The notes under the pieces were generated by a model. That model was given only the letters and a program-made list of their open reading frames with translations. It ran no database searches and was not told where the DNA came from. The position numbers and the translations under genes were made by a program. DNA of 56,223 bases from a virus (Duplodnaviria > Heunggongvirae > Uroviricota > Caudoviricetes): positions 625 to 56,847 of the IMG/VR virus record IMGVR_UViG_3300011008_000036; one strand, written 5' to 3'. Of the stretch, positions 2,372 through 47,265 are shown piece by piece. Numbering within the stretch: the first letter of the stretch is position 1; the number at the start of each line of letters is the position of its first letter.

Positions 2372-3163
2372 ATGCCTAGAAGAAAAGCATCTGAAGTTGA
2401 GAATGATGAAGTACTTGAACCAGTAGCAAAAAAGAATGAAACATTTGTAGTTCGCTGGTTCAATGATTATGCGGTTGACAATAAAGATGATTTAAAAATA
2501 GTCTGTGATGCAACACTACGATCAGCAGAACAGCAGTTTTCATTGTATCTGAAATCTAAAAACTCTGAAACCTATGCAGCTATATTCTATGGAACATTTA
2601 TCAATATACTTGAATTTCTTAAAGAAAAAGAAAAAACGTATAATGAATTTACAATTGAAATTGGATCTTCAATAAATATTGGATTCTGTAATAATACAGA
2701 TGAAAATAATGAAAAAGCTGGTAATTTTATGCCAATTCTTGAATGCACTGGAACGTTGAATAGAAATATTGCTGGTCCAAATCCATCTGATCTCACAGAA
2801 CAATCTAGTGCAATAAGTTATATTTCATGGAAAGAATTGAATTGTAAACGTAATGCAGATGCAATGAAAGAAATTCAAGAAAAAACATATCAATATTTAA
2901 AGAAAGAATTTAGAATTAATCTGAGAACATCAGAAGCGGTCATTCCATTATTTTGTATATTTATTGACCATCTAATGAATGTGTTGAAATATAAATATAA
3001 AGAATTACTTGATACAAATATTAGTGAAGTATCAATGAAAGTTTTAGGATTGTTTGAAATGTTCTATTCATATAATGAAGAAACTGGTCAAGATATCATT
3101 GATTTTGTACCAAGTGTGTTTATGAAATTATCATTAAAATCAGATGAACGTGCTGAAAGATAA
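2372..3163 (+). CDS. Hypothetical protein (263 aa)
   Basis: Long ORF, SD AAGGAG, terminator hairpin downstream; no motif recognised. Confidence 0.8.
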   Translation: MPRRKASEVENDEVLEPVAKKNETFVVRWFNDYAVDNKDDLKIVCDATLRSAEQQFSLYLKSKNSETYAAIFYGTFINILEFLKEKEKTYNEFTIEIGSSINIGFCNNTDENNEKAGNFMPILECTGTLNRNIAGPNPSDLTEQSSAISYISWKELNCKRNADAMKEIQEKTYQYLKKEFRINLRTSEAVIPLFCIFIDHLMNVLKYKYKELLDTNISEVSMKVLGLFEMFYSYNEETGQDIIDFVPSVFMKLSLKSDERAER

Positions 3164-3296
3164 TAATTAATATTTAATATATAGAAGATGATCTATAATG
3201 ATCATCTTCTATATAATTATTTTATTATTTTTAATCATATATTATTTTTGTAAGAACAAAAAATAAATATGTTGTGTAAAGGAGATATAGTATAAG

Positions 3297-4616
3297 ATGC
3301 TAGTAAATAAAGAAGCATTACAAAAAATTATTAATGAAGAAAATTATAAATCATTAGATGAATTATATTGGTATGAAACAGAAGACCAACATAAGAAACG
3401 TGCTAAATTACAAGAACGATTGGAAAGACAATTTAGAGAATCACATTTATCAAACTTTTATAAATTAATACCAAATATAAAATTATCAACTGGACCATTT
3501 TGGTATATTTGGGATTATGGTGTGTATAATAAACATAACGAATTAGTAGCATTAGTTGATTTATATGATGGAAATTTTTATATTGATAAATGTGATTATG
3601 AAGAATTTATTAAAGTTCCATTGGAACATGCTTGTAGTATTAATGAAGTACTCACAGAAGGTTTAAAAATATTACGAGAATCAGTATTAGAATCATATAT
3701 GAATATTTCGGAATTTACAATTTATAGTGATCATTTCATTGATTCTTTAGAATTTATGATTAAATGGTTATTACCAAATTACGATGAATATGTTGACAAA
3801 ATGTTTGAATTATCACGTTCAATATCATTTCCATTTCCACATTATTCAGATAATGAATTAATTGAATCATATGATCAATTATGTCAAATGCCATGTGACG
3901 ATTCAAATATTGCATTGAATACCAGAGTAGGAGATAAAATAATTCAACATTTTCATCCATCAATTTGGAAAGCTCATCGTGGTGGAGATAGATCACCTTA
4001 TGAGGCTTGGCAAGATGATGAATTAATCAAAAAGGTTATACGTAATAGAGTAATATTTCAACCCTATATAAATGCATATAAAATTTGTCAAGGTTTAAAT
4101 ATCATGAGAGCAGCTTCTAAAGTATCTGTATTTTCAGCAGGTAGAGCAAAATTAATTATTCATAAATATTTAAATGATTATAATACAATATTCGATCCAT
4201 TTTCTGGATATTCTGGTAGATTATTGGGAACTATTTCCATAGGAAAACATTATATTGGTCAAGATATAAATATTAACCATATTAATGAATCTTGTAATAT
4301 ATTGATATTCTTAAGAAATCATTTTAAAAATATCAATGCAGAATTATTCAATAAGAATATATTTGCTAGTAGTGGAAAATATCCATGTTTGTTTACATGT
4401 TCACCTTATGCAGACAAGGAAATTTGGGACGGGACACCAGAATCTTCATTATCATGTGATAAATGGATTAATGAATGTTTGCAAAGATTTGATTGTGAAA
4501 GGTATGTTTTTGTAGTAGATGAAAGTACAGATTATAAAGATAATATAGTAGAAACTTTGAATAATAAATCACATTTTGGATTAAATAATGAATATGTCAT
4601 TGTGATAAATCGATAA
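3297..4616 (+). CDS. Putative amino-DNA methyltransferase with a degenerate N-terminal nuclease-like domain
   Basis: SAM-binding-like IFDPFSGYSGRLLG followed by YIGQD; motif-IV-like FTCSPY; paralogous to the C-terminal part of 13109-15317. Confidence 0.65.
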   Translation: MLVNKEALQKIINEENYKSLDELYWYETEDQHKKRAKLQERLERQFRESHLSNFYKLIPNIKLSTGPFWYIWDYGVYNKHNELVALVDLYDGNFYIDKCDYEEFIKVPLEHACSINEVLTEGLKILRESVLESYMNISEFTIYSDHFIDSLEFMIKWLLPNYDEYVDKMFELSRSISFPFPHYSDNELIESYDQLCQMPCDDSNIALNTRVGDKIIQHFHPSIWKAHRGGDRSPYEAWQDDELIKKVIRNRVIFQPYINAYKICQGLNIMRAASKVSVFSAGRAKLIIHKYLNDYNTIFDPFSGYSGRLLGTISIGKHYIGQDININHINESCNILIFLRNHFKNINAELFNKNIFASSGKYPCLFTCSPYADKEIWDGTPESSLSCDKWINECLQRFDCERYVFVVDESTDYKDNIVETLNNKSHFGLNNEYVIVINR

Positions 4617-41190: not shown

Positions 41191-42054
41191 TTGCGAATTA
41201 AATTTGAATTGCTAAATTGGGAATCAGAATGTTATAATGATATTATTAATGATCGTGGTTTTCTGATAGCAGATCAACCATTTTCCGATGTTGATAAGTC
41301 AATTAAAAATGTTGATGGTCCAAGATCTCCTAGATATGGATCAGCTCCTGAAGATACATCAGAATTTAATAATCGATATCGTTGTAATTGTGGTAAATAT
41401 ATCGGTGCTATTTTTGAAGGAGAAGTTTGTCCAGAATGTAACACGAAAATTGAATATCGCGATATTGATTTACTTTACACAGGATGGTTGAATTTTTCAC
41501 CATATAAAGTAATTAATCCAATCTTTTATAAGAAATTGGAATCAGCTCTTTCAAAAGATAATTTGAAAAATATCATCAGTAATGAGAATATAATTACTTC
41601 TACAGGAATAATTAGAAAACATAATGATGATATAGAAGTTAAAAAATCAATGTTGAAATATCATAATATTGGTATGTACGAATTCTATTTAAATTATGAA
41701 GAAATCATGTTATATTTTAAACAGAAACGAAAAACCAAAGCTGATCTTATTCAACAATTGATTGATATGAAGAATCAAGTTTGGACGTCAAAAGTACCAG
41801 TATATTCAACAGTATTAAGACCTCTATCTATATCCACAGAATCTTTATATTTTTCACCACTAGATAGAAATGTATTCCCCTTGACAAGTATTTCAATTAA
41901 TCTAAAAAGAGCTTCACCTATTGAAGTTCCTCTATATTTGTTTCAGGCTCAATCAAAAATCAATGAATTATGGGATATTAATTTTTCACTGCTGGACGGA
42001 AAACATGGCGTGATTAGAAGTCAGGTCCTTGGCGGTGAGTTTAACTTCACGTCT
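41191..42054 (+). CDS. rpoC: RNA polymerase beta-prime-like N-terminal subunit, exon 1
   Basis: Zn finger CNCG...CPEC, VLRP, ends LGGEFNFTS (equivalent to GKRVDFSG). Confidence 0.9.
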
Positions 42055-43296
42055 GAACCACATCTGGACATGTAAAACTCTTTTAATTGCGGGAACATCC
42101 TTAGAGCTTTAATTACCAAATTAATATAGTAATATATTAATGGCAATGAATAATGTCAAAGGTTTGGTAAAAAGATTAAAGATTGGATAATCCGCAGCTA
42201 AGTTTGTATATTTTGAAATTATTCATAACTTTATATTCTAATATTAATATTAATAAAGGAATTATATAATTATGAATAATGAAATTATTTGGAAAGATGT
42301 TATACTAGATGGAATAGTTACCAATTATGAAGTTAGTAATACGGGATTAATTAGAAATAAATCAAATGGTAATGTATTATCAAATGTAATAGCAAACAAT
42401 GGATATTATGTTGTAAATTTGCATATTAATAATTTACAACATACAAAAACAATTCATCGTTTAGTTGCAAATACATTTATTCCAAATCCAGAAAATAAAC
42501 CACAAGTAAATCATATAAATGGAAATAAGTTAGATAATAGAGTTGAAAATTTAGAATGGAATACACAGTTAGAAAATATACAACATGCGTTCAATAATGG
42601 ATTAATGCCGAAGGGTTCAGAATGGAGTTTTTCTAAATATGCAGATGATCAAATACATTTAGTATGTAAATTATTGGAATATCAAATTCCAATACGATTA
42701 ATAACTGATCTAACAGGTGTTAAGTCTAGTACTATTTTTGATATTAGAAAAGGTATAAGTTGGACTCATATCGGCAGATTATATAAATTTGATTCTAATT
42801 ATTATTCTACTCATGATATGAAAAAAATTAAATATAAGGATTTAAAAAAAATATTAATAGAATTGAATATATTTAATGATATAGATTTATTTATATTATT
42901 AAAATCAAAAAATATTAAGAAGAAAAAGAAATTATTAGAGGATTTGGAAAATGAATATAATGAAATATTCTTGTTTAAGGATGAACTTAAAGAACTTAGT
43001 AAAATTGAAAATAATTAAATATTCTATTAAAGTTATAACATCAAGAAAAAAATATACAATAAAGTTCAACGACTATCGACCAACTATGATATTGGATAAT
43101 TACCATATCGATATAGTCAGTAGAGTACACCCAAAGCGCTAATGTGGGCGTGTATAAAATGGAATGTTATACACCGTAAGTGGAAATGAAGAGTACATAA
43201 TTAATTTATGTAAAGATATAGTCTCATCTTTATAGAAATATAAAGAAGTTCATAAGAGAACTGCATATACGTTGCGAATATATGTGAAGATAATTG
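42055..43296 (+). mobile_element. Group I intron with HNH endonuclease ORF
   Basis: P1 CACGUCU/GGACAUG with U.G; P10 AGAU/AUCU; P 42085-42094, Q 42189-42198, R 43064-43076, S from 43213; terminal G at 43296; junction FTS|RSVI. Confidence 0.93.
42272..43018 (+). CDS. NUMOD4-HNH homing endonuclease (intron-encoded)
   Basis: IHRLVANTFIPNP, VNHINGNKLDNRVENLEW. Confidence 0.92.
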   Translation: MNNEIIWKDVILDGIVTNYEVSNTGLIRNKSNGNVLSNVIANNGYYVVNLHINNLQHTKTIHRLVANTFIPNPENKPQVNHINGNKLDNRVENLEWNTQLENIQHAFNNGLMPKGSEWSFSKYADDQIHLVCKLLEYQIPIRLITDLTGVKSSTIFDIRKGISWTHIGRLYKFDSNYYSTHDMKKIKYKDLKKILIELNIFNDIDLFILLKSKNIKKKKKLLEDLENEYNEIFLFKDELKELSKIENN

Positions 43297-43648
43297 AGAT
43301 CAGTAATTGTTTTAGATCCTACTTTAAAAATGGATGAAGTTGATATGTCTTATAAAGAATTCATCGAATTGTATAGAGGGCATATCATAAAAAGAATTAT
43401 TAAAGATAAAGGTTGGACAATAACAAAAGCATCAAATTATTTATCATCAAAATTTATGTATGATAAATACATTCATTCTATAATGATGCAAATCATTGAA
43501 GAAGACCAACCCCAAATTATTCTTAATCGTAACCCCACCATAACATTTGGGTCAATTTTATTAATGAAAATCCGTAAGGTAAAAACAGATAATAATGATT
43601 TAACATTATCAATTCCTTCAAGTATATTAAAAGGATTAAATGCTGATT
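43297..43648 (+). CDS. rpoC: Beta-prime-like subunit, exon 2
   Basis: RSVIVLDP, ILNRNPT, GLNAD plus the first base of the Phe codon. Confidence 0.9.
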
Positions 43649-44967
43649 TAACACATCTATATCCCAGGTTGAGATCAGTTTAAAAACTTTCCTAAATGCG
43701 GGAAACTTCCTATAATTCATTTATACTAAATTATATTAGTAATAATATAATGGCAAGAGGTAATATCTCAAGGTATAGTAAAAAGTAAATGAATTAGTAT
43801 CTTTATTTAGAAAGATATGAGTTCAGAGACTATCGAAAAGGTAATATAAATAGTAATGTTTATATGAGTAACTGAGTAGAGTACGGCTTATATTAATGAA
43901 TATAAGTAGGGTTGGGATCCTTTAAATGGAAACGGAAAGTATATTATATTACCTTCATATGAAGGTAATATAATATAAAGATATAGTCCATGATTAAGTA
44001 TAAAGTATTATTCCGTATATTTTAAATCATCTAATTTTTCAAAATTAGGAAAATATTCTTGATTTGTTTTAGGATAGTTTTTTAAATATAAACCAATTGT
44101 ATCATATAATGTTTTATAAAAGTTTTTAGCTTTTTCACTATGACGATCTTGACTTCGTTTATCTTGATCATTTATAACATTATTGATTAAAACATCTTCA
44201 CGTTTTACTGAATCTATATAGAATATAAACCATCCTCTATATGGTTTACCAGTTCTATTTGCATTTTTAATTAGATCTTTTGTGGTATGTAAATAATCAG
44301 CAAATAATTTCATTGAGTCAGAAAATATCAATTTTTGCTGATTCATATTTACAGCAATTATTGGTTCGGATCTTAATAATTTTTCTTTAGCTGATAGATT
44401 TGATCTAGATGTTTTCCTAGTATTAATAGCTTCATCTAGATTATATCCATTTTTAATTGTATCATATAGATTTATAAAATAATTTTCCATATCCGTATGA
44501 ACTGGTTGAAGAGTTTCAGCTATTGGATACATTATAAAATTTTCAATGCCTTCGTCAATCATAGCTTGAATAATTGGGCGATGAATCTTTTTAACTCCCT
44601 TACTCTTTAATGCTTTATTATATTCATAAATATATTGTGAAGCTCTTTTTTGTAATGAAGCCATTGGACCAGAATTAGCTACTCCAATATTTAGTGAATA
44701 TGTGGATCCAATATATTTCTTACCATTTAAAAGATTCTCAATGCAATAAATATAACCATATCGATCGAGATTATATATATTTGGTATTTTATGGATTGGA
44801 TCAATTGGTTTATTAACTAAAAACTTTTTCTTTATTTCTTGATTTAAAATTCTATCTAAATCATACATAATAAAAACAACTCCTTTTGCAATTAATAATT
44901 TTAATATTATGTATACAGATAATGATGTTTTTATTATATGTGGAATAATGCGATTAAAAGTTTAACA
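43649..44967 (+). mobile_element. Atypical group I intron inside the NADFDGD codons
   Basis: P1 GCUGAUU/GAUCAGU with U.G; P10 UCGAC/GUUGA; P 43694-43703, R 43821-43833, S 43977-43988; Q element not found; last base is A. Confidence 0.78.
44008..44868 (-). CDS. GIY-YIG homing endonuclease, antisense within the intron
   Basis: GYIYCIENLLNGKKYIGS, ENYFINLY, NGYN; own SD AAGGAG on the minus strand. Confidence 0.88.
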   Translation of the reverse strand: MYDLDRILNQEIKKKFLVNKPIDPIHKIPNIYNLDRYGYIYCIENLLNGKKYIGSTYSLNIGVANSGPMASLQKRASQYIYEYNKALKSKGVKKIHRPIIQAMIDEGIENFIMYPIAETLQPVHTDMENYFINLYDTIKNGYNLDEAINTRKTSRSNLSAKEKLLRSEPIIAVNMNQQKLIFSDSMKLFADYLHTTKDLIKNANRTGKPYRGWFIFYIDSVKREDVLINNVINDQDKRSQDRHSEKAKNFYKTLYDTIGLYLKNYPKTNQEYFPNFEKLDDLKYTE

Positions 44968-45134
44968 TCGACGGGGATGTGCTGAATATGCTTGGAATGG
45001 AATTACCAGAAATAACAGAAATATTCAAAAACTTTTCACCAACACAATTAATATATAATCGTGTTGATGCAAGTATTAGGATTGATATTTCTGATCTGGA
45101 AAATATCAGTTTATCTATATTTAGTGATTTTTAA
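44968..45134 (+). CDS. rpoC: Beta-prime-like subunit, exon 3 (not in the ORF track); spliced product 460 aa
   Basis: (F)DGDVLNMLGMELPEITEIFKNFSP...SDF-stop; completes NADFDGD; terminator hairpin at 45143-45178. Confidence 0.88.
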
Positions 45135-45315
45135 ATGATATAAAATACAATGCTGGTATAATTGCCAGCATTGTATTTATTTTATTATCGTATATTATTA
45201 TTTTTTATTGATATATTATAATTGTGAATAAATAAAAGAAAGGAGTTGAGTATTAATGGGATTTACTTGACATAATTAATTTTAGATAGTTTTAATTTTA
45301 GTGTGTAAATACATG

Positions 45316-45678: not shown

Positions 45679-46041
45679 ATGGATGAAATAATCTATTTTG
45701 ATTTGAACAATTGGTCTGCTGGAAATACATATCCAAATGCAGAACCATTTATCAGTTGGATGGGGGGTGATTTAAACACAAGATTATATGATGATGTTTG
45801 GGTAAAAAGAAATAATTTAGTTGTTGTCGCTGTAACAGTAGATCAAAGTATTTCATTTAATGTTTCAGCTCCAAAAAAATGGGTAATGAAAAATTGTCCA
45901 TCCTTATTAGATGAATATTCAAAATTTATTTGTATTGCTGATAAAGAAAATGAATTACCTGATCCACATATATATGGAAGTTTTATGAAATACTGTGAAG
46001 AAAATATTGGTCTACATTACGATGATACTTGGTTTGAATAA
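45679..46041 (+). CDS. Hypothetical protein
   Basis: 120-aa ORF with an upstream TGATATATTAT motif. Confidence 0.75.
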   Translation: MDEIIYFDLNNWSAGNTYPNAEPFISWMGGDLNTRLYDDVWVKRNNLVVVAVTVDQSISFNVSAPKKWVMKNCPSLLDEYSKFICIADKENELPDPHIYGSFMKYCEENIGLHYDDTWFE

Positions 46042-46080: not shown

Positions 46081-47265
46081 ATGTTAAATCCAAAGACAAG
46101 TGAAAGAGAACTTGCATATTTAGTTAAAGTCAACGATGTAATCAAACACGGAAATGCTGATAGACTTGAAATCGCTGTTATTGGTGGATGGCATGTAATA
46201 GTTGGAAAAGGAGAATTCCAAAAAGGTGAGGTTGGAATATATTTTGAAATTGATTCTTTATTACCAGATAAAGAACCTTTTCATTCTATGGAATTTTTAG
46301 CATCAAAACATTTTCGAATTAAGACGCAAAAAATTAGAGGTGAATTATCGCAAGGTTTTCTTATCCATCTTAAATGTTTAAAAGGTACAGAATTTGAAGA
46401 TCTCAGTAATATAGATAATTATAATGATGAAAATCGATTTCTTACTGAAAGATTAGAAGTAAAATATTATGAGCCTGAATATAATGAAAGAAAGAATAAT
46501 AACAATAAACAAGTAGTTGATAAATACAAAAGAATGATTTCTCGTCACAGAGAATTATTCATGAAATATCTTCCATTCAAGTGGATGATACAATATCCAT
46601 TAGGTCAAAAATTATTATATATATTCTTTGGTAGAAAAACTGATGAATTAAAAGCTCAGTGGCCAAGTTGGGTACGTAAAACGGATGAAGAAAGAATTCA
46701 AAATATGAAATGGATTTTACAGAATAAAGATAGATGGATAGTCACTGAAAAGGTTGATGGAACATCATTAACTGTTGCATTTCATAAACAGAAGGGAATT
46801 TTTATATGTTCGCGAAATTTAGCATTTTATGATACTGATGAGAATTTATACACTAGTATCGCAAAATCTCGAAAAATTCCAGAAGCATTACAAGATATTT
46901 GTGACGAATATAAATTAAATTGGGTAACTTTCCAAGGAGAAATATATGGAAAATGCGTTCAGAAAAATGAATATTTTCTTCCATACCAGGAAGTTTTAGG
47001 ATTTAATTTAGTCTTCTCTGATAGAGGAAGATTAAATTCTGTAGTAGCAGAAAATATCATGTCGAAATATAATATATCTTGGGTGCCAATTCTTAAAGTT
47101 GACTATATTCTTCCTGACACAGTTGAAGAATTAATGCAATATGTTGAAAATGAAGGCTCTCAACTTGCTAATGTTATGCGTGAAGGTTTAGTATTCAGGT
47201 CTCCCGATGGGATAAAATCATTTAAAGCAGTATCAAATAAATATTTATTAAAATATCATGGATAA
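46081..47265 (+). CDS. RNA ligase, Rnl2/DRB0094 type
   Basis: N-terminal HGNADRLE...YFEIDS; EKVDGTS, FQGEIYG, REGLVFR, FKAVSNKYL. Confidence 0.9.
   Translation: MLNPKTSERELAYLVKVNDVIKHGNADRLEIAVIGGWHVIVGKGEFQKGEVGIYFEIDSLLPDKEPFHSMEFLASKHFRIKTQKIRGELSQGFLIHLKCLKGTEFEDLSNIDNYNDENRFLTERLEVKYYEPEYNERKNNNNKQVVDKYKRMISRHRELFMKYLPFKWMIQYPLGQKLLYIFFGRKTDELKAQWPSWVRKTDEERIQNMKWILQNKDRWIVTEKVDGTSLTVAFHKQKGIFICSRNLAFYDTDENLYTSIAKSRKIPEALQDICDEYKLNWVTFQGEIYGKCVQKNEYFLPYQEVLGFNLVFSDRGRLNSVVAENIMSKYNISWVPILKVDYILPDTVEELMQYVENEGSQLANVMREGLVFRSPDGIKSFKAVSNKYLLKYHG

Follow-up and report, generated by a model that had tools for sequence, protein, structure and literature searches.

The intron that interrupts the active-site codons of an RNA polymerase beta-prime gene in the phage studied here belongs to the standard IA2-like group I introns of phages and holds an antisense GIY-YIG gene within its P9 loop; its sequence predicts self-splicing. 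It occupies positions 43649-44967 (plus strand) of the window, by which we mean the whole stretch of 56,223 nucleotides analysed. The parent IMG/VR virus record, of which the window covers bases 625-56847, is 120,847 bp long and has a completeness rating of 45%. The source is a jumbo phage whose DNA is AT-rich and which has a multisubunit RNA polymerase. We consider it probable that the core of this IA2-like intron is complete in the phage, 19 nt having been lost in the record, that the terminal A of the intron is genuine and that splicing proceeds normally. The anatomy of the intron, the private deletion, the terminal A with its recurrence, and the covariation of P1, P4, P10 and P9.0 are established here. 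An intron without a core in an essential active-site codon would be remarkable; here the impression stems from an artefact in a single record, worth noting as such against reuse.

The gene for the N-terminal beta-prime subunit spans 41191-45134 and comprises three exons. Exon 2 (43297-43648, plus strand; Pfam RNA_pol_Rpb1_2, E 6.8e-5) ends with ...LNAD and the first T of a Phe codon, and exon 3 (44968-45134, plus strand) continues as (F)DGDVLN... to the stop codon, as judged by alignment with the uninterrupted homolog L010 and with exon 3 of L219. The insertion point thus follows the first base of the Phe codon within NADFDGD, in a gene that encodes the catalytic Asp triad of the RNA polymerase subunit. 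The surrounding motif is a hot spot for introns: across 43620-44975 and the homologs P0003-P0059 there are at least 5 different insertion points within ~20 nt (after ILPG, after LPGL, after NA, inside the Phe codon and after NADF), as inferred from read-through tails among 55 homologous gene products. Directly 3′ of the beta-prime stop codon (45134), a hairpin of 13 bp and the T run after it (45143-45180) look like an intrinsic terminator. Some 500 nt of non-coding sequence follow this hairpin before the next ORF starts at 45679, and a further ORF downstream of the polymerase gene (46081-47265) carries a PHA02142 OB-fold and an RNA ligase domain, with Pfam E-values of 1e-19 and 1e-17.

The intron measures 1319 nt in the window record and 1338 nt in other assemblies. 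Its assignment rests on the P, R and S elements, and its ends on P1, P10 and the alignment of the exon proteins. By sequence reading, P1 (43643-43678, plus strand) forms 6 bp between exon CTGATT (43643-48) and guide GATCAG (43673-78), placing a U.G wobble (T43648/G43673) at the 5′ splice site, and the adjoining guide GTTGA (43668-43672, plus strand) pairs with TCGAC of exon 3 (44968-72) to give a P10 of 5 bp. The 5′ strand of P4 is the P element TGCGGG (43697-43702, plus strand). In the extended P5 arm, ATTCATTTA (43715-23) pairs with TAAATGAAT (43786-94) as P5a, followed by a P6 hairpin (43798-43817, plus strand; strands 43798-43804/43811-43817), which is homologous to P6 in the nearest relatives (GTATCTT...AAGATAT) and covaries in alignment A2. 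The R element (43821-32), an exact match to the consensus, supplies the 5′ strand of P7 and leads into the 3′ strand of P3, the two together spanning 43821-43840 (plus strand). P3 itself (43687-91 with 43835-40) contains one bulge and, like a P8 hairpin that is also present, was identified in the sequence by its analogy to alignment A1. The 5′ strand of P7 consists of G43826, a bulged A43827 and GACTA (43828-32), and its 3′ strand TAGTCC lies in the S element (43979-43989, plus strand), again an exact consensus match. Both G43828-C43988 and G43826-C43989 pair in P7, the latter covarying with A-U in relatives; the guanosine-binding G-C pair and the bulged A are intact. An Rfam cmscan of the window returned only two tRNAs and no Intron_gpI match, whether at the gathering threshold or with the cut-off relaxed to E 10. 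This silence is uninformative, because the canonical sister introns of the window were missed as well. A family covariance model (R1) does match the window at 43693-43832 with 75.6 bits.

One strand of this core is absent from the window record. Between P5 and R there is no CCGCA-type strand to pair with the P element TGCGGG, which is left without a partner, and P5 runs straight into the P6 hairpin and the R element. The three sister introns in the window each carry AATCCGCAG after P5 (17966-74 on the minus strand, 37840 and 42189). In all these points the sequence agrees with a preliminary description of the intron, which had taken the missing Q element and the terminal A for two independent defects and had suggested splicing assisted in trans or a new intron subtype, with a short assembly deletion of about 18 nt as the mundane alternative. 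An exact look-up of the product of the antisense ORF retrieved two further assemblies of the same phage, namely L082 (ENA ERZ3810914; 81-kb contig, coverage 24.7) and L083 (JGI 3300011005; 76.5 kb). Aligned to the window with blastn, they show 0 mismatches over 6.8 kb and 4.2 kb, respectively, and the sole gap is one of 19 nt, between 43795 and 43796 (plus strand), which is private to the window record. The mundane alternative is therefore the one borne out, at 19 nt. The lost bases comprise GGAA of the 3′ strand of P5 (partner of TTCC at 43707-10), CAA of J5/4 and the Q element or P4 3′ strand, TCGACGCAG; thus P4, as formed by the P and Q elements, is absent from the window record and present in L082 and L083. 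Moreover, the restored Q fits the window's own P (TGCGGG with GACGCA), and the counterpart in L219 is TGCAGG with GATGCA. Since the strand is found in two otherwise identical assemblies, no trans-splicing model is needed, and the reading as a new subtype is not supported either.

The wider family gives the same picture. A scan of IMG/VR with a pattern of the conserved P5b strand followed by R recovered 80 introns of this family, reduced to 59 distinct rows in alignment A2. Q is present in every one of the 80, as AATCCGCAG or AATCGACGCAG; the window alone is without it. P4 pairs in 59/59 of the distinct P4-P6 domains, A-U having replaced G-C in 4 of them, and P5, P5a and P6 covary richly. When R1 was built from 59 relatives with the window lineage left out, the restored intron of L082 scored 123.7 bits against 75.6 bits for the window, a drop of 48 bits. 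No other copy of this type of Q was found in the 120-kb record, and no microhomology flanks the 19-nt deletion. An error of the assembly or of the consensus most likely explains the loss; failing that, the deletion would be a private variant that is non-viable, or a real allele, whether minority or majority, of the source sample. Judged from the assembled sequences, the catalytic core is complete in the phage itself.

It could be argued instead that the allele without Q is real and functional, P4 being formed with another strand or P4-P6 being supplied in trans by the RNA of a neighbouring intron or by a protein. The record does lack the 3′ strand of P4, and other copies of the intron lie nearby. 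A search of the intron for alternative partners of TGCGGG gave as its best candidate TTCCGTAT at 44011-18, which could pair with ATGCGGGA over 8 bp, including two G.U pairs. However, this segment already belongs to the 16-bp P9 helix with 44936-51, and was rejected; partners of its kind are common in this AT-rich sequence. Given also that two otherwise identical assemblies carry the strand, that 0/80 relatives dispense with Q and that the model score falls by 48 bits without it, we regard a functional Q-less allele as highly improbable.

Two extra copies of the intron family were seen outside the window in the same 120-kb record, at C1:343-506 and C1:~119676-120838 (R1 scores of 110 and 88 bits, respectively), the second being cut by the end of the record. 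The 76.5-kb contig of L083 stops inside the P element, at the equivalent of window position 43702. This suggests that repeated intron cores lead to contig breaks and local errors in metagenome assemblies of jumbo phages.

The second peculiarity, the terminal base, is of a different kind. We found 105 homologs of beta-prime exon 2, and all 11 of the uninterrupted ones that were read have LNADFDGD, which fixes the spliced product as GAT T|TC GAC and excludes G as the last base of the intron. NADFDGD is restored by this junction only, the one to which the 5-bp P10 also points, and the last intron base is then A44967 (plus strand), or T44968 if the 5′ cut falls one base later. The window intron thus lacks the terminal G expected of a group I intron. 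Four assemblies share one 3′ end, in which L082/L229, L083 and L232 (JGI 3300010998) agree with the window. The preliminary description was right that a short deletion would not account for the terminal A, which is kept where the 19 nt are present. Of the two defects that it proposed, then, the terminal A is real and recurrent, whereas the Q/P4 defect is absent from L082 and L083.

Further alleles were gathered through the products of the exons and of neighbouring genes; the insertion site, the core and the antisense endonuclease are common to all of them. The terminal base is A in three further alleles (L219, L235 and L233/L234/L238) and G in L228/L230/L231 and L224/L225. Among these, L228, L230 and L231 represent a sister species that is ~77-80% identical and carries Q, its terminal G standing before TCGAT. 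A second clade (L224/L225, L219, L235 and L233/L234/L238) has a core 74% identical to that of the window phage and an exon protein ~75% identical; its L233/L234/L238 allele, from a 265.7-kb scaffold, ends in A. L220, a compact intron unrelated to these, occupies the same site and likewise ends in G. A tighter pattern run against IMG/VR and a metagenome collection matched only L217 (IMG/VR) and L219 (metagenome collection), and the pattern AAYGCNGATTTAACAC gave only chance matches in IMG/VR among the matches listed. Terminal A is, on this sequence evidence, a natural variant that occurs in two clades beside G-ending relatives, in four distinct alleles. The P7 pocket, with its G-C pair and bulged A, is the same in A-ending and G-ending alleles, and the terminal base does not covary with it.

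The position of the 5′ cut bears directly on which base is terminal. If both splice sites lay one base downstream (GATTT|...T|CGAC), the terminal base would be U44968 rather than A44967. The spliced product would be identical, and P1 and P10 permit either register, T43649 and T44968 both being able to pair with A43672. Yet this would place the cut after a U-A pair, even though the U.G wobble is conserved at the expected site in all four lineages despite changes in P1. Indeed, in every allele collected the 5′ cut follows the U.G wobble, which is kept through compensatory changes in P1 (CAGATT/AGATCTG in L228; CTGACT/GGTCAG in L224 and L238). Moreover, the P9.0 helix of L219 and L238 ends right before the A, the usual place of omega, and the sister alleles that end in G put omega in the register of A44967. 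The shifted junction is therefore quite unlikely. P10 is likewise kept in relatives, GTCGA pairing with TTGAT in L219 and L238 and with TCGAC in L224.

Several sequences near these junctions deserve separate mention. A 7-nt repeat, TTTAACA, stands at both ends of the intron and was considered as a duplication; this was rejected, as the tails are collinear with substitutions relative to L228 and the repeat is absent from L219. L085 has a terminal G together with a Tyr codon, to which we give little weight: its 5′ half is L219-like, whereas exon 3 is closer to the other RNA polymerase paralog (as in L086) and is not an ortholog of window exon 3. L085 may have arisen by recombination, or the assembly may be a chimera linked via the endonuclease gene that both parts share. 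It also contains a 41-nt mini-exon between two group I introns (3640-3700, minus strand). A second such case is found in L238 (ENA ERZ28633584 scaffold_32, reverse strand ~770-1160), where an 11-nt mini-exon, CAATGCTGACT, coding for part of L-N-A-D-F, is flanked by an upstream intron ending ...GGCAAG and by the intron with the antisense endonuclease, which starts directly after it.

The long 3′ part of the intron is taken up by the endonuclease gene and by the helices that close the loop in which it lies. The gene (44008-44868, minus strand) runs opposite to the intron and encodes 286 aa, with a YIY-N10-YIG motif near residue 40, as in an N-terminal nuclease domain; Pfam gives a weak SegE_GIY-YIG hit that falls short of the curated cut-off (E 0.0014). 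Homologs with 48-53% identity occupy the same antisense position in introns of L084-L086. In L084 and L086 (minus strand, ~2400-3900) the homologs sit in a different-looking group I intron, in both cases ending in G, which interrupts a second RNA polymerase-like gene within its D|xDGD motif (SGD|YDGD and GAD|DDGD). Gene calling divides the endonuclease gene into two ORFs in L224 and gives a single ORF in L225; L232 also has two ORFs (163 and 96 aa), on a contig whose first 497 nt cannot be aligned to the window. Such split calls in L224 and L232 may reflect decaying alleles or assembly noise.

Two helices, found with RNAduplex, close the endonuclease loop. Their 5′ strands lie within 43992-44020 and their 3′ strands within 44936-44966 (both plus strand): a P9 helix of 16 bp joins 44005-20 to 44936-51, and a P9.0-like helix joins 43992-98 to 44961-66 and so adjoins the splice site. 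The energies of the loop-closing helices are -23 to -28 kcal/mol, and 0/300 shuffles reach the observed energy. The long-range helix beats shuffled tails in all five alleles examined (z -3.3 to -6.6; 0-3 of 300 shuffles), with z -5.0 in the window. The same architecture, built from different sequences, recurs in L219, L238, L224 and L228, and in L219 and L238 the proximal helix begins at the first base after P7 and stops one base before the terminal A. A helix that runs from just after P7 to the 3′ tail occupies the canonical position of P9.0, and supports both the assignment of the splice site and a functional 3′ end.

Whether alleles with this 3′ end are functional has to be weighed against what the terminal base does. 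Few features of group I introns are as strongly conserved as the terminal G, since it fills the guanosine pocket during exon ligation, and in model introns (Tetrahymena, T4 td) a change of the terminal G to A blocks exon ligation. The A-ending alleles might accordingly be impaired in splicing or dead, with the beta-prime gene crippled by a recent G-to-A decay; the near-universality of the terminal G, the requirement for it in model introns and its retention in close relatives would all fit. Against this, two separate clades have the A, and the four distinct alleles concerned have diverged by substitutions and indels and yet keep P9.0, P10 and the exon frame. The same 3′ end was assembled for the window phage from at least 3 samples, at ~25x coverage in one of them, and the affected gene encodes the catalytic Asp triad. 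We thus hold impairment to be unlikely, and infer from the sequences that the A-ending alleles splice. A milder form of the idea is that A is a mildly harmful derived state, which it could be, given the sister alleles with G (the L228 group and L224/L225).

For a normally splicing intron with a complete core, the pathway may be pictured as follows. In the first step, exogenous G would attack after the U.G pair of P1, the guanosine-binding G-C pair of P7 and its bulged A being intact. In the second, the 5-bp P10 and the long helix from just after P7 to the terminal base would hold the 3′ splice site. We propose that, because the 3′ site is held by P10 and the long helix, A can replace G in exon ligation. 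A broader form of this proposal, to which we incline slightly, is that the terminal base is relaxed throughout the intron family of the DFDGD codons, with A- and G-ending alleles both splicing. Here, the unusually long P9.0/P9 helix that encloses the antisense endonuclease gene, together with P10, would fix the 3′ site in place of recognition of G in the P7 pocket. At least 4 natural A-ending alleles in two phage clades, beside close G-ending relatives and with all P7 pockets intact, form a natural matched set of A and G alleles, with which the share of 3′ splice-site choice that falls to the terminal base can be set against that of P9.0 and P10.

Among the phages in GenBank, blastn matched only the crAss-like phage cr127_1 (MT774393), whose DNA polymerase intron is the nearest public sequence, with 83% identity over the P4-P5 arm; R1 scores it at 136 bits and the restored window intron at 124 bits. 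With phage IA2 introns of the T4 td/nrdB/sunY class the window intron has in common the P/Q/R/S core, the extended P5 arm, the P7.1/P7.2-like region and an insertion site in an essential phage gene, at an active-site codon that is conserved. It differs from that class in its antisense endonuclease gene, its terminal A and its host gene, RNA polymerase beta-prime. Introns with homing endonucleases also interrupt RNA polymerase genes of jumbo phages, phiPA3 being one example. Such introns have been reviewed (PMC12908238), and the present one resembles them as a mobile group I intron with an endonuclease at a conserved site of an essential jumbo phage gene, but its GIY-YIG enzyme is encoded on the opposite strand and its insertion site is different. 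Endonuclease genes antisense to the ribozyme are likewise carried by group I introns of nuclear rDNA at L2066 (PMC9548176). Those, however, are eukaryotic His-Cys box genes with spliceosomal introns of their own, whereas the window has a phage GIY-YIG gene in the P9 loop.

As to the terminal base, we know of no natural group I intron ending in A besides that of Coxiella. The 23S rRNA intron Cbu.L1917 of Coxiella burnetii is reported to be a natural group I intron without the canonical terminal G (Raghavan et al. 2007, J Bacteriol 189:6572; reference 20 of PMC3428280). Cbu.L1917 is a bacterial rRNA intron of another subgroup, whereas the A described here stands in a protein-coding gene of a phage and alternates with G among close alleles.
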